Positions 2,610-6,114 of a DNA stretch of 28,160 bases are shown piece by piece. Within the stretch, counting starts at the first letter, position 1. Each line of letters starts with the position of its first letter. Where the stretch lies: the IMG/VR virus record IMGVR_UViG_2879765931_000002; one strand, written 5' to 3'. The translations under genes were made by a program, and so were the position numbers. Source of the stretch: a virus. Lineage: Duplodnaviria > Heunggongvirae > Uroviricota > Caudoviricetes. A model generated the notes under the pieces. It saw only the letters and a list, made by a program, of their open reading frames with translations, searched no databases and had not been told where the DNA came from.

Positions 2610-2674
2610 GTGAGGTAGCCTGAGTTTAACGGACACTCCTTCCTGAAATAGAATGGCATCAGAAGGAGCTAATA

Positions 2675-2977
2675 ATGAGCAGAAAAACCCAACGTTACTC
2701 TAAAGAGTTCAAAGCCGAAGCTGTCAGAACGGTTCTTGAAAATCAACTTTCGATCAGTGAAGGCGCTTCCCGATTATCTCTTCCTGAAGGCACTTTAGGA
2801 CAATGGGTTACCGCCGCCAGAAAAGGGCTCGGTACTCCTGGTTCCCGCACGGTGGCTGAACTGGAATCTGAAATTCTGCAACTGCGTAAGGCGTTAAATG
2901 AAGCTCGCCTTGAGCGCGATATATTAAAAAAAGCAACAGCGTATTTTGCACAGGAGTCGCTGAAAAATACGCGTTAA
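2675..2977 (+). CDS. IS600 OrfA (HTH transposase N-terminal subunit, 100 aa)
   Basis: MSRKTQRYSKEFKAEAVRTV...; helix-turn-helix plus leucine-zipper-like C-terminus typical of IS3-family OrfA. Confidence 0.9.
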   Translation: MSRKTQRYSKEFKAEAVRTVLENQLSISEGASRLSLPEGTLGQWVTAARKGLGTPGSRTVAELESEILQLRKALNEARLERDILKKATAYFAQESLKNTR

Positions 2978-3012
2978 TCGAACAATGGCGACAACAATTT
3001 CCCATTGAAGCG

Positions 3013-3831
3013 ATGTGTCAGGTATTTGGTGTATCCAGGAGCGGTTATTACAACTGGGTACAGCATGAACCCTCAGACAGAAAACAAAGTGATGAGCGGC
3101 TAAAACTGGAGATTAAGGTGGCACATATCCGCACTCGCGAAACATATGGAACCCGGCGGCTCCAGACGGAGCTGGCAGAGAATGGCATCATCGTTGGTCG
3201 TGACCGACTGGCACGTCTTCGTAAGGAGCTGAGGCTACGCTGTAAGCAGAAACGCAAGTTCAGAGCGACTACGAACCCGAACCACAATCTGCCAGTTGTG
3301 CCAAATCTGCTGAACCAGACGTTCGCTCCTACAGCACCAAATCAGGTCTGGGTGGCGGACCTGACGTATGTTGCCACACAGGAGGGATGGTTGTACCTCG
3401 CTGGCATCAAAGATGTTTATACGTGCGAAATTGTCGGCTACGCCATGGGAGAGCGCATGACAAAAGAGCTGACAGGTAAAGCCCTGTTTATGGCGCTCAG
3501 GAGCCAGCGCCCACCTGCCGGGCTAATCCACCACTCTGATCGAGGTTCACAGTACTGCGCATACGATTACCGGGTCATACAGGAGCAGTCTGGTCTGAAA
3601 ACATCAATGTCGCGTAAAGGTAACTGTTACGACAACGCTCCGATGGAAAGCTTCTGGGGAACGCTGAAAAATGAGAGCCTGAGCCACTATCGTTTTAATA
3701 ACCGGGATGAAGCCATCTCAGTAATACGGGAATACATTGAGATTTTCTACAATCGTCAGCGTCGTCACTCTCGTCTGGGGAATATCTCCCCGGCAGCCTT
3801 CAGGGAAAAATATCATCAGATGACTGCTTAA
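3013..3831 (+). CDS. IS600 OrfB (DDE transposase catalytic frame); in vivo expected as OrfAB fusion by -1 frameshift
   Basis: 272-aa frame with WVADLTYV ... HSDRGSQY ... DNAPMESFWGTLKNE (DDE motif). The frame is open upstream back to the A7 run, consistent with programmed -1 frameshifting. Confidence 0.9.
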   Translation: MCQVFGVSRSGYYNWVQHEPSDRKQSDERLKLEIKVAHIRTRETYGTRRLQTELAENGIIVGRDRLARLRKELRLRCKQKRKFRATTNPNHNLPVVPNLLNQTFAPTAPNQVWVADLTYVATQEGWLYLAGIKDVYTCEIVGYAMGERMTKELTGKALFMALRSQRPPAGLIHHSDRGSQYCAYDYRVIQEQSGLKTSMSRKGNCYDNAPMESFWGTLKNESLSHYRFNNRDEAISVIREYIEIFYNRQRRHSRLGNISPAAFREKYHQMTA

Positions 3832-3874
3832 AAAAAGAACAAATGGTAGTGTCCGCTATTGCCAGTACACCTCA

Positions 3875-4046
3875 TATTGGCTACGTAATTAAAACAGAAA
3901 ATAAAGAAACCCCATTCACTGTAGTTGATATCGACGGTCTATCAGGAAACTTTAAAACTCTTGTTGAAGGTGCCACAAAAATGTGCCTAGTTTACATCGG
4001 AAATAATCTGCCCGCAGAAAAAAAGCCGAATTTCTGGCAAATCTGA
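3875..4046 (+). pseudogene. 3' fragment (56 codons) of an 81-codon small gene split by IS600; the 5' fragment is at 6038..6114 on the minus strand
   Basis: After the IS end the frame reads IGYVIKTENKETPFTVVDIDG...NFWQI*. Joining it to the 6114..6038 fragment through a single TAT restores one in-frame ORF. Confidence 0.7.
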
Positions 4047-4085
4047 TTGCAATGAAATTAAAAGGTGAAATCTGAAAAAAAGAAA

Positions 4086-4104
4086 GCCTGCACAATGTGC
4101 AGGC
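4086..4104. terminator. Hairpin GCCTGCAC-AAT-GTGCAGGC flanked by A-run upstream / T-run on the opposite strand; candidate bidirectional terminator
   Basis: Perfect 8-bp stem read directly; AAAAAAAGAAA immediately 5' on the plus strand. Confidence 0.4.
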
Positions 4105-4174
4105 CTGAGTGAAGAACCTGGGACATTTATTCATCACTCGCAGTAATTTTAATCTGAGTTGAGGTTAAAAAACA

Positions 4175-4819
4175 ATGAGCACAAAACCACTCTTCCTGTT
4201 ACGGAAAGCGAAAAAATCATCCGGTGAACCTGACGTCGTCCTGTGGGCAAGCGACGATTTTGAATCGACCAGCACCACTCTGGACTATCTGCTCGTTAAG
4301 TCAGGTAAAAAACTGAGCAACTATTTTAAAGCTGTTGCCACAAATTTTCCTGTCGTTAATGACCTTCCCCCTGAAGGTGAGATCGATTTTACCTGGAGTG
4401 AACGCTATCAACTCAGCAAAGACTCCATGACATGGGAACTAAAACCGGGAGCAGCGCCAGACGACGTTCACCACCAGGATAATGCTCAAGAAACCAAAGA
4501 ACTGGCGGGAGGCCAGGAAGAAAACGCGCAGGCAGACGCCCACGAGGATTGCCAGGATTGCGAAGTCTCTGTAGCCACTTTGCGGTTCACACAGCGTCTT
4601 CTGCACATTTTTACGTATGCTGCCGGGGATCGGAAATACCTGCATCATGCCACCCGTGAACAACGCAAACACATTACTGCTCTTGAGATGGATCAGGAAA
4701 ACAGCTATGTCCAGAATCTGCTGTTGGCCATACGCGGCATGGCAGAACCGACAACTCTGGATAATGCCGCCCTGCTCCGCCTGACTGATGCAATTAAGGC
4801 TGAGGTGTACTGGCAATAG
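4175..4819 (+). CDS. Hypothetical protein with an acidic central segment; 3' end truncated by IS600 (last 6 codons and stop come from the IS end)
   Basis: Good RBS (GAGG 9 nt upstream of ATG at 4175). 214-aa ORF; IS600 terminus begins at 4801, so native C-terminus is lost. No family recognised. Confidence 0.5.
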
Positions 4820-4843
4820 CGGACACTACCATTTGTTCTTTTT

Positions 4844-5635
4844 TTAAGCAGCTATCTGATGATATTTTTCCCTGAAGGCTGCCGGGGAGATATTCCCCAG
4901 ACGAGAGTGACGACGCTGACGATTGTAGAAAATCTCAATGTATTCCCGTATTACTGAGATGGCTTCATCCCGGTTATTAAAACGATAGTGGCTCAGGCTC
5001 TCATTTTTCAGCGTTCCCCAGAAGCTTTCCATCGGAGCGTTGTCGTAACAGTTACCTTTACGCGACATTGATGTTTTCAGACCAAACTGCTCCTGTATGA
5101 CCCGGTAATCGTATGCGCAGTACTGTGAACCTCGATCAGAGTGGTGGATTAGCCCGGCAGGTGGGCGCTGGCTCCTGAGCGCCATAAACAGGGCTTTACC
5201 TGTCAGCTCTTTTGTCATGCGCTCTCCCATGGCGTAGCCGACAATTTCGCACGTATAAACATCTTTGATGCCAGCAACATACGTCAGGTCCGCCACCCAG
5301 ACCTGATTTGGTGCTGTAGGAGCGAACGTCTGGTTCAGCAGATTTGGCGCAACTGGCAGATTGTGGTTCGGGTTCGTAGTCGCTCTGAACTTGCGTTTCT
5401 GCTTACAGCGTAGCCTCAGCTCCTTACGAAGACGTGCCAGTCGGTCACGACCAACGATGATGCCATTCTCTGCCAGCTCCGTCTGGAGCCGCCGGGTTCC
5501 ATATGTTTCGCGAGTGCGGATATGTGCCACCTTAATCTCCAGTTTTAGCCGCTCATCACTTTGTTTTCTGTCTGAGGGTTCATGCTGTACCCAGTTGTAA
5601 TAACCGCTCCTGGATACACCAAATACCTGACACAT
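4844..5635 (-). CDS. IS600 OrfB variant (263 aa, 9-aa deletion beside first catalytic Asp); probably inactive
   Basis: Alignment by eye against the three 272-aa copies in this window. Confidence 0.8.
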   Translation of the reverse strand: MCQVFGVSRSGYYNWVQHEPSDRKQSDERLKLEIKVAHIRTRETYGTRRLQTELAENGIIVGRDRLARLRKELRLRCKQKRKFRATTNPNHNLPVAPNLLNQTFAPTAPNQVWVADLTYVAGIKDVYTCEIVGYAMGERMTKELTGKALFMALRSQRPPAGLIHHSDRGSQYCAYDYRVIQEQFGLKTSMSRKGNCYDNAPMESFWGTLKNESLSHYRFNNRDEAISVIREYIEIFYNRQRRHSRLGNISPAAFREKYHQIAA

Positions 5636-5670
5636 CGCTTCAATGGGAAATTGTTGTCGCCATTGTTCGA

Positions 5671-5973
5671 TTAACGCGTATTTTTCAGCGACTCCTGTGC
5701 AAAATACGCTGTTGCTTTTTTTAATATATCTCGCTCAAGGCGAGCTTCATTTAACGCCTTACGCAGTTGCAGAATTTCAGATTCCAGTTCAGCCAGCGTG
5801 CGGGAACCAGGAGTACCGAGCCCTTTTCTGGCGGCGGTAACCCATTGTCCTAAAGTGCCTTCAGGAAGAGATAATCGGGAAGCGCCTTCACTGATCGAAA
5901 GTTGATTTTCAAGAACCGTTCTGACAGCTTCGGCTTTGAACTCTTTAGAGTAACGTTGGGTTTTTCTGCTCAT
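5671..5973 (-). CDS. IS600 OrfA (copy 2)
   Basis: 100 aa, one substitution (V->L) relative to the other copies. Confidence 0.9.
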   Translation of the reverse strand: MSRKTQRYSKEFKAEAVRTVLENQLSISEGASRLSLPEGTLGQWVTAARKGLGTPGSRTLAELESEILQLRKALNEARLERDILKKATAYFAQESLKNTR

Positions 5974-6037
5974 TATTAGCTCCTTCTGATGCCATTCTAT
6001 TTCAGGAAGGAGTGTCCGTTAAACTCAGGCTACCTCA

Positions 6038-6114
6038 ATATGCTTTCCTTCCAGGTAAACCTCGTGAACAATGTTATCAGTAGTTGCAACAGTGGCTTCA
6101 TAATTGGTGTTCAT
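6038..6114 (-). pseudogene. 5' fragment (25 codons, MNTNYEATVATTDNIVHEVYLEGKH) of the small gene split by IS600; 3' fragment at 3875..4046
   Basis: Strong RBS AAGGAGAAAAAC before ATG at 6114..6112; the frame runs straight into the IS600 end at 6037. Confidence 0.65.

Follow-up and report, generated by a model that had tools for sequence, protein, structure and literature searches.

Rearrangements between homologous copies of insertion sequences (IS) are described as a general feature of Shigella (PMC7373316), and between S. flexneri 8401 and 301 six IS-mediated inversions have been described, one of which was attributed to IS600 (PMC1550401). For the genes discussed here, the closest described relative is the early region of the Escherichia coli K-12 Rac prophage, with the gene order kilR-ydaE-racC-recE-recT. 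The stretch of DNA that we analysed (28,160 nucleotides of the virus record IMGVR_UViG_2879765931_000002, hereafter the window) comes from a Shigella flexneri chromosome, is 100% identical over 13 kb to CP026871.1, and contains the decayed remnant of a lambdoid, Rac-like, ipaH-carrying prophage located between ybhA and pgl. It shares with K-12 Rac the order ydaE-racC-recE, a racC gene with 92% DNA identity, and a RecE N-terminus that belongs to the Pfam family Exonuc_VIII, but it differs in lying at ybhA/pgl and not at the Rac site, in having a Rha gene upstream, in carrying ipaH, in the frameshift of its racC, and in being broken by IS600, IS2 and IS3.

The window begins with ipaH (1-1812, plus strand; Pfam LRR_TTSS/NEL), an LRR and NEL E3-ligase effector gene that is annotated as ipaHb in the intact prophage; it is cargo at the tail end of the prophage, and in related genomes pgl is found just beyond it. 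It is followed by a tail-fibre-assembly-like gene (1992-2609, minus strand; Pfam DUF4376), whose first two codons and upstream region were removed by an IS600 copy (copy 1). The 5′ part of recE (4175-4800, plus strand) has 208 codons, matches the Exonuc_VIII profile (PF06630, 1.3e-67) and aligns to the RecE of the reference locus L001; it is truncated by the right end of a second IS600 (copy 2), and the open reading frame (ORF) continues to 4819 inside the IS. A ydaE-family gene (6189-6470, minus strand), identified by annotation and by Pfam YdaE, lies directly upstream of racC, a position that it also has in Rac and in the intact prophage. Next to it lies a Rha-family regulator gene (6487-7297, minus strand; Pfam Phage_pRha), the first 14 codons of which are at 8602-8562, beyond a third IS600 (copy 3).

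Four IS600 copies are present in the window, with 99-100% mutual identity: copy 1 (2611-3874, plus strand, 1264 bp; orfA 2675-2977, orfB 3013-3831), copy 2 (4801-6037, minus strand, 1237 bp; its orfB has an in-frame deletion of 27 bp), copy 3 (7298-8561, minus strand) and copy 4 (21120-22383, minus strand). The 1264-bp copies start with TGAGGTAGCCTGAG and end with CAGTACACCTCA, have the terminal inverted repeats TGAGG/CCTCA, and carry the two ORFs of the IS3 family, orfA (100 aa) and orfB (272 aa). The same genes are matched by Pfam HTH_Tnp_1, HTH_21 and rve, and their RefSeq matches are labelled 'IS3-like element IS600 family transposase, programmed frameshift'. Copies 1 and 2, the same IS in opposite orientations, bracket a segment of 926 bp.

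The flanks given for these two copies in the initial annotation are correct. Copy 1 has ATG on its left (2608-2610; CAT in the sense of the DUF4376 gene) and TAT on its right (3875-3877), while copy 2, read in IS orientation, has TAT on its left (ATA on the plus strand, 6038-6040) and GCC on its right (GGC on the plus strand, 4798-4800). A 3-bp target duplication is intact at simple insertions of IS600, namely copy 3 (TAA at 7295-7297 and 8562-8564) and an insertion in racC of E. coli FDAARGOS_943 (TTG/TTG). Copy 3 is specific to this strain and absent from the other assemblies, and it provides an internal control for an unrearranged insertion. Copy 4 also has mismatched flanks (TAT/ATT in IS orientation); with the head module of the prophage on one side and a truncated Mu-type transposase gene on the other, it marks one more breakpoint associated with IS600 in this prophage. 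As its left flank is also TAT, the 3-bp match between copies 1 and 2 is by itself weak evidence.

The gene split between these two copies is racC of the Rac-like prophage. Its 5′ part (6038-6114, minus strand) contains the ATG (6114-6112), 25 codons and the duplicated bases, with a ribosome-binding site, AAGGAG (6121-6126, minus strand), 6 nt upstream of the ATG; its 3′ part (3875-4075, plus strand), which aligns to L001, reaches the ancestral stop codon at 4073-4075. The piece 6114-6040 (minus strand), with the ATG and 24 further codons, ends in the left (orfA-side) end of copy 2, and the piece 3876-4046 (plus strand), with 56 codons and a stop, directly follows the right (orfB-side) end of copy 1. 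It had been proposed that removal of the IS restores a single in-frame ORF of 81 codons, and the two joined pieces do translate to a continuous 81-aa product. The joined sequence (246 nt) is uninterrupted over the join in 1,711 E. coli genomes, and its best match (98.8%) lies in E. coli FDAARGOS_944, whose version of this ipaH-carrying prophage is IS-free. Together with the blastn alignment to L001, these contiguous copies identify the fragments as adjacent parts of one gene, with abundant intact homologues in E. coli. The initial annotation had named unrelated fragments in related genomes, or the lack of any intact homologue, as grounds for giving up its reading, and neither applies. A homologue of the joined ORF is annotated as RacC in phage records, and a Pfam profile search with RacC returned no family. 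The joined gene aligns to racC of the K-12 derivative DH5alpha over 244 of its 246 nt with 92% identity, and the annotated position of racC is between ydaE and recE both in DH5alpha and in the intact prophage. The synteny of the window agrees with this order, the 5′ half of racC following ydaE and the 3′ half preceding the truncated recE.

The length of the reconstructed ORF requires a correction, since the K-12 type of racC has 91 codons. In the window the A run at 4018-4024 is A7 instead of A8, owing to which the mechanical ORF terminates at 4044-4046, and the protein alignment to K-12 RacC is colinear up to this frameshift. Even with the IS removed in silico the gene has 81 codons, and the intact 91-codon frame was not recovered. 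The IS-free racC of FDAARGOS_944 has the same frameshift and is annotated as 'frameshifted'. The allele hit by IS600 was already frameshifted; the continuity of the 81-codon ORF stands, but it is a frameshifted allele of a longer gene.

As the intact reference we used the IS-free prophage of E. coli FDAARGOS_944 (NZ_CP065613), which occupies the same chromosomal site, carries ipaHb and preserves the collinear, uninverted arrangement, with the gene order ybhA-int-xis-...-gam-recE-racC-ydaE-rha-...-cI/cro-...-lysis-DedA-terminase-heads-tails-tail fibre-DUF4376-ipaH-pgl. By blastn, window positions 3873-4800 correspond to 12073-13000 of L001 and 6036-7298 to 12079-10817 (99.4-99.6% identity), so that the two racC pieces, separated in the window, abut in the prophage lacking the insertion, sharing the 3-bp TAT and a further 4 nt whose identity with the IS termini is coincidental. 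Positions 1-2612 align to 25572-22961 of the reference locus L012, where the DUF4376 gene starts at 22958. The window maps onto the intact prophage as three blocks; every breakpoint coincides with an IS600 end and shows a 3-bp overlap: GGC in recE, TAT in racC and, where the tail-fibre-assembly (DUF4376) gene begins, CAT. The TAT and GGC overlaps are visible against the uninterrupted reference, and the TAT at both racC junctions is a split target duplication of IS600.

A rearrangement with three breakpoints requires at least two IS600-to-IS600 inversions among three insertions. The initial annotation had invoked one inversion, by recombination between the racC insertion and a second, inverted IS600; the split TAT and the second copy are real, but one inversion is insufficient. 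Undoing a single inversion between copies 1 and 2 leaves an IS600 flanked by ATG and GCC that joins the tail-fibre-assembly gene to recE. In the intact prophage these genes are about 35 kb apart, and the tfa-ipaH-pgl block is oppositely oriented relative to recE. A history starting with an inversion between the copies in racC and tfa was also rejected, because these two had the same orientation and recombination between them would delete DNA instead of inverting it.

The second, inverted copy could be traced, with its right end in recE and the other half of its GGC duplication in a different genome. The predicted partner junction, consisting of the IS600 left end (AAACTCAGGCTACCTCA), GGC and distal recE (AGTTTTCTCTATC), has an exact match in the IMG/VR contig L014. 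Beyond the GGC junction this contig matches the reference with 99.6% identity through distal recE, gam, the ATPase gene and int. L014 belongs to another genome than the loci arranged like the window, and an IS911-like element interrupts its IS600 at nt 482; the junction of truncated recE with IS600 is found in IMG/VR contigs from genomes other than L014. A protein homologue search with the distal-recE ORF of L014 returned only RecE homologues of 646 aa, which reach no more than 97% identity and are mosaics when compared with this allele, and did not return the truncated ORF itself. Exchanged target duplications, with mismatched flanks and the partners at other copies, were thus observed for TAT and GGC. 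The CAT partner (tail fibre, CAT, IS600 right end) was absent from IMG/VR with two pattern lengths. Its shorter pattern was also absent from the GTDB species representatives, which lack the GGC junction as well, a negative that says little because this set probably holds no S. flexneri-type genome. The head-side partner of copy 4 (IS600 left end, AAT, CAAAGTC...) was looked for and not found.

The arrangement of the window is found at 21 loci in 18 of 18 assemblies, with no collinear locus. These assemblies come from different submitters, most are single multi-megabase chromosome records, and they include at least four S. flexneri of different serotypes (1c, 2a, 5a and Y). The arrangement is fixed across the sampled assemblies, and the rearrangement is older than the divergence of the S. 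flexneri serotypes sampled. It had been asked whether both orientations coexist; among the 18 assemblies there is no alternative orientation and no sign of coexistence, and continued flipping of the 926-bp segment in living populations is improbable. No genome was found in an intermediate state, for instance with racC::IS600 still collinear and flanked by TAT on both sides, and no relative was found that carries the IS insertions without the inversion. A programmed invertible DNA switch was considered and rejected: positions 1-8600 encode no recombinase other than the IS600 transposases, the repeats are whole ISs, and there is one orientation.

The best explanation of these data, which we hold to be likely, is that three IS600 insertions were followed by two inversions through homologous recombination between inverted copies. 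Each insertion would have generated a 3-bp duplication, in recE (GGC), in racC at codon 26 (TAT) and in the DUF4376 gene at codon 3 (CAT), with the recE copy inverted relative to the other two. One inversion would have turned round the large block that extends from recE to the tail fibre, and the other only the 926-bp piece with the 3′ part of racC and the 5′ part of recE, in either order. The result is tfa-IS600 (copy 1)-racC 3′-recE′-IS600 (copy 2)-racC 5′-ydaE-rha, in which each IS would be a hybrid bearing half of two different duplications: copy 1 probably derives its left end from the DUF4376-gene insertion and its right end from the racC insertion, and copy 2 its right end from the recE insertion and its left end from the racC insertion. 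The exchange presumably occurred by RecA-type homologous recombination, a reading based on the known transposition pathway of the IS3 family, with indirect support from mosaic single-nucleotide polymorphisms (SNPs) among the copies. In the window, copies 1 and 2 differ by 6 SNPs and the 27-bp indel; across strains the deletion is found in copy 2 only, in neither copy or in both, and the SNP patterns are mosaic. These patterns show ongoing homologous exchange among the IS600 copies. An attempt to place the crossover points from the SNPs was abandoned, as the mosaic patterns differ between strains and the copies have been homogenised by gene conversion.

A formally identical footprint, in which the two parts of each 3-bp duplication end up at different IS copies of opposite orientation, would be left by intramolecular replicative transposition. 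A single IS600 in recE (GGC) would attack CAT and then TAT in the same molecule, and in each attack the IS would be duplicated in inverted orientation, the intervening DNA inverted, and one 3-bp target copy left at each IS. Inversions of this type are established for IS6, IS1 and Tn3-type elements, e.g. IS26, and resemble the present locus in that two IS copies of opposite orientation enclose inverted DNA and each carry one copy of a split target duplication; to our knowledge the mechanism is not established for IS3-family elements such as IS600. This route would retain the original recE flank, as seen from the GCC at copy 2 and the GGC next to the IS600 left end in L014, and it needs three events, against five (three insertions and two inversions) for homologous recombination. 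IS26 is reported to reorganise plasmids in this way (PMC4471558), but the IS3-family members that have been studied transpose via a figure-of-eight and a minicircle (copy-out/paste-in), which gives simple insertions (PMC3219604, PMC7780238). The differences between copies 1 and 2 also count against replicative duplication, an argument blurred by gene conversion. Moreover, independent IS600 insertions are frequent in this small region (copy 3, and two further ones in racC and recE of FDAARGOS_943), so that three separate insertions are not improbable. We consider the replicative route improbable; if true, it would mean that an IS3-family element makes adjacent inversions with IS duplication in vivo, outside copy-out/paste-in.

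Still less probable is that the apparent inversion is an arbitrary choice of the assembler. A 926-bp segment between inverted repeats of 1.26 kb is not orientable by short reads, and as the junction sequences are equal in both orientations only reads spanning a whole IS600 copy distinguish them; nevertheless, the orientation is the same in all 18 assemblies, mostly single multi-megabase chromosomes from different submitters, and flipping the small segment back would leave the tfa-IS600-recE junction mismatched and the large inversion in place. We give no credence to a chance in-frame join of unrelated fragments, for which it could be said that TAT is a common flank here (also at copy 4) and that one join in three would be in frame: the 1,711 genomes carry the joined sequence unbroken, at up to 98.8% identity, and both fragments with their flanks align to adjacent reference positions at more than 99%.

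Two IS600-mediated inversions after three insertions thus remain the preferred reading, and the locus, though real, is an ordinary trace of the genome scrambling by ISs for which Shigella is well known. Its biological weight is small: the two genes hit, racC and recE, have simply been put out of action in a prophage that is itself defective, and the rearranged structure creates neither a new function nor a new regulatory device. It is, however, a textbook case of how split 3-bp duplications and an uninterrupted reference allow nested IS-mediated inversions to be reconstructed. It also bears on annotation, since the 67-aa, 214-aa and 29-aa "genes" annotated at this locus in public genomes consist of pieces of racC and recE that run into IS600 ends, and it illustrates that short-read assemblies are no reliable guide to how a segment flanked by inverted IS copies is oriented.

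In the literature we found no paper that treats this locus specifically. The nearest case within the same gene is racC::IS600 of FDAARGOS_943 (L013), with the same IS, prophage and chromosomal site and a 3-bp duplication; it differs in its position (codon 15/16), its target (TTG), the opposite orientation of the IS and the collinear racC halves, and is an independent event without later inversion. The inversions described between S. flexneri strains (PMC1550401) share with the window the organism, the IS and the presumed recombination between homologous copies, with inverted copies of an expanded IS bracketing inverted DNA. Those segments, however, are longer than 5 kb and differ between strains, whereas one of the inverted pieces reported here is 926 bp, lies within a prophage, splits a gene and is common to all sampled S. 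flexneri.

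The initial annotation had described one small gene split by IS600, its halves placed on opposite strands by an IS600-mediated inversion; the observation is confirmed and the inversion reading is supported, with refinements. The gene is racC. Its 5′ fragment (6114..6040, minus strand), an ATG and 24 further codons with an AAGGAG site in front, enters the left end of the second IS600 copy (c2), and its 3′ fragment (3876..4046, plus strand), 56 codons and a stop, begins at the right end of the first copy (c1). When joined in silico the fragments read through as 81 codons, so that fragments, junctions and joined ORF were all recovered where they had been placed. 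The joined 246 nt run uninterrupted over the join in 1,711 of the 5,426 complete E. coli genomes, with the closest match in FDAARGOS_944 (98.8% over 100% of the query), and a homologue of the joined ORF is annotated as RacC in phage records. We aligned the window by blastn with a piece of the FDAARGOS_944 genome carrying the IS-free prophage (L001, from NZ_CP065613), and found that window 3873-4800 corresponds to L001 12073-13000 and window 6036-7298 to L001 12079-10817, at 99.4-99.6% identity. The two aligned pieces abut in L001, with a 7-bp overlap made up of TAT and of bases shared with the IS termini by chance. The adjacency of the halves in this relative, and the contiguity of the ORF in the 1,711 genomes, establish that a single gene was split by IS600, while the shared TAT is by itself weak evidence because the fourth copy (c4) also has a TAT flank.

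The surrounding gene order agrees with this identification. L001 has the order Rha, YdaE, racC homologue, RecE, Gam, and further on xis, int and ybhA, and the K-12 derivative DH5alpha has kilR, ydaE, racC, recE. In the window, ydaE (6189-6470, minus) and rha (6487-7297, minus) lie upstream of the racC 5′ half, and downstream of the 3′ half comes an ORF of 214 aa, of which codons 1-208 encode the N-terminus of RecE (Pfam Exonuc_VIII, 1.3e-67); recE is likewise interrupted, by the right end of c2. RacC of the K-12 type has 91 residues, whereas the window allele has 81 codons, a frame that results from an A8 run shortened to A7 at 4018-4024, the ancestral stop being at 4073-4075. Since the IS-free FDAARGOS_944 allele has the same A8-to-A7 change (L001 about 12217), racC was probably already defective, through this frameshift, before IS600 arrived. 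Removal of the IS does restore a single gene, as had been proposed, but the full gene is the 91-codon racC, of which the 81-codon ORF is a frameshifted allele. RacC matched no Pfam family, and we know of no function for it.

The four copies of the 1264-bp IS600 element are located at 2611-3874 (c1, plus, 1264 bp, flanks ATG/TAT), 4801-6037 (c2, minus, 1237 bp, TAT/GCC), 7298-8561 (c3, minus, TTA/TTA) and 21120-22383 (c4, minus, TAT/ATT), all flanks being given in IS orientation. The element starts with TGAGGTAGCC and finishes with ACACCTCA, each copy has an orfA of 100 aa and an orfB of 272 aa, and identical DNA is labelled in RefSeq "IS3-like element IS600 family transposase". In c2, orfB is short by 27 bp (IS600 nt 764-790, about window 5275), that is nine codons (TQEGWLYLA) directly 3′ of the WVADLTY motif. 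Across 18 assemblies, c2 alone, both c1 and c2, or neither of them lacks these 27 bp, but no assembly has the loss in c1 alone; the SNPs among the IS600 copies are mosaic. This pattern indicates gene conversion among the copies, the inverted c1 and c2 included, which means that homologous exchange has acted on these same elements. Both IS600 ends also contain outward-facing start codons, ATG in the right end and GTG in the left end (MSVKLRLP...), predicted to give in-frame fusion ORFs with the racC 3′ part, rha, the DUF4376 gene and distal recE (window 3843-4046, plus; 6487-7329, 20876-21151 and 1992-2636, minus; and 8996-10357 of L014, an IMG/VR contig). Public annotations call several of these predicted ORFs as genes.

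In FDAARGOS_944 the prophage is essentially intact. It lies between ybhA and pgl, and its lysis genes are followed by DedA, terminase, portal, head, tail, baseplate, tail fibres, a DUF4376 gene of the tail-fibre-assembly-like type and ipaHb, after which pgl comes. To the same prophage belong ipaH (1-1812), the DUF4376 gene (1992-2609), DedA (11955-12467) and the head module (12.6-21.1 kb) of the window. Between c3 and DedA (8562-12222), the window's strain has lost about 9.7 kb of prophage (L001 612-10324, lysis genes to cI/cro) that is still present in other S. flexneri assemblies. An IS2 copy (9059-10389) now occupies this place, together with a truncated IS3-family element (10389-11622). 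A second IS2 copy (14045-15377) interrupts the large terminase gene. FDAARGOS_944 also has a fragment of a DNA-invertase gene at the prophage end, between ipaHb and pgl (positions 26078-26173 of L012, another piece of that genome); the window begins within ipaH, and the matching position therefore falls outside it.

For the reconstruction we defined four blocks: A, from ybhA to distal recE; B, the 5′ part of recE with the racC 3′ half (926 bp); C, from the racC 5′ half to the tail fibre; and D, with DUF4376, ipaH and pgl. Ancestrally these run A-B-C-D, and in the window D'-c1-B'-c2-C. All the breakpoints coincide with IS600 ends: recE is broken at GGC, racC at TAT, and the DUF4376 gene at CAT in its codon 3. 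Reversing the c1 × c2 inversion in silico yields racC::IS600 with TAT on both sides, and leaves one IS600 with ATG/GCC flanks linking D' to the recE 5′ part, so that a second inversion is required. The proposed inversion between two IS600 copies is supported by the split TAT duplication and the uninterrupted racC of the relative, but the locus calls for two or more inversions among three insertions. From the way the IS ends point, it follows that the recE copy lay in the opposite orientation to those in racC and the DUF4376 gene. Either the recE and DUF4376 copies recombined first, in a large inversion, and a small inversion of B followed, or B was flipped first, by exchange between the recE copy and the racC copy, and the large inversion came second; the two histories are equally short and both fit. 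The racC and DUF4376 copies cannot have supplied the first inversion, as they were direct repeats.

From both histories, an IS600 left end abutting GGC and distal recE is expected. The 33-nt predicted junction (IS600 end plus L001 13001 onward) occurs exactly, and once, in IMG/VR, on L014, where it runs on into distal recE, gam, an ATPase gene and int with 99.6% identity to L001. An IS911-like element breaks the IS600 of L014 at nt 482 and hides the other side of that copy. L014 belongs to a different genome from those where the window-type structure was observed. The predicted partner of the CAT junction (right end of IS600 against CAT and the tail-fibre gene's 3′ end, ...GGATGCACAT joined to TGAGGTGTACTGG), expected unless since lost by deletion, was not found in IMG/VR or the GTDB representatives. 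Past the IS911-like element, L014 1-8540 resembles phage DNA and is unrelated; it encodes a Rha-like protein, and also a primase/helicase that has a putative intein-type insertion.

Block C is cut off at c4, where the head module (L012 8164, flank AAT) is joined to a 3′-truncated Mu-type transposase gene (22381-24015, minus) that adjoins dpiA'-dcuC-pagP; a Mu-repressor-like ORF (24398-24907) is followed by the 3′ end of dpiA. The stretch 21120-25586 looks like a Mu-like prophage remnant in dpiA plus another IS600-associated breakpoint, and one more IS600 inversion, the third, would account for the junction at c4; the partner predicted for that junction was searched for and not found. The left inverted repeat of c4 has a variant base (TGAGATAGCC).

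The window is identical (100%) to CP026871.1 over its first 13 kb; of the other chromosomes that match it, a paper assigns three to S. flexneri serotypes 5a, 1c and Y, and one more to serotype 2a. The order DUF4376 gene, c1(+), racC 3′ half, recE 5′ part, c2(−), racC 5′ half, with identical flanks, was found in 21 loci from 18 assemblies, among which the collinear racC::IS600 pattern had no match and coexistence of both orientations left no sign. The arrangement is fixed among the sampled assemblies, several serotypes included, and must therefore be older than the split of the sampled S. flexneri serotypes. The c3 insertion is specific to the window's strain, and other strains have an extra IS in c2, the recE 5′ part or ydaE. 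An assembly artefact is unlikely given the concordance of the 18 assemblies.

In our judgement IS600 probably inserted three times in the ordinary way, and copies in inverted orientation then recombined; we infer that homologous recombination was the agent of the inversions. An intact 3-bp duplication flanks the simple IS600 insertion c3, and also an independent one in racC of E. coli FDAARGOS_943 (NZ_CP065615.1, 19800-23400 of the L013 piece), where, in the same prophage and site, IS600 follows codon 15 with TTG/TTG flanks and collinear halves, in the orientation opposite to that of the window's racC insertion. A second FDAARGOS_943 copy interrupts recE about 90 bp away from the position hit in S. 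flexneri; its flanks are mismatched (ATG/CTA), and it has deleted everything up to the integrase gene. These insertions, together with c3, indicate that IS600 strikes this small region often, and in FDAARGOS_943, a separate lineage, these same 2 kb have again been damaged by IS600. Intramolecular replicative transposition, the one alternative to take seriously, would produce the same split duplications in fewer events than insertions plus recombination, but we regard it as improbable, as the IS3-family elements studied proceed through a figure-of-eight and a minicircle to simple insertions (PMC3219604, PMC7780238).

Inversions of this type have parallels in this group: S. flexneri genomes differ by IS-mediated inversions, one of them attributed to IS600 (PMC1550401), and the spread of IS elements, accompanied by rearrangement between their homologous copies, has been described as a hallmark of Shigella (PMC7373316). 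The racC locus shows this well-known process at work in a decayed prophage; it is an ordinary case, of a kind already known.
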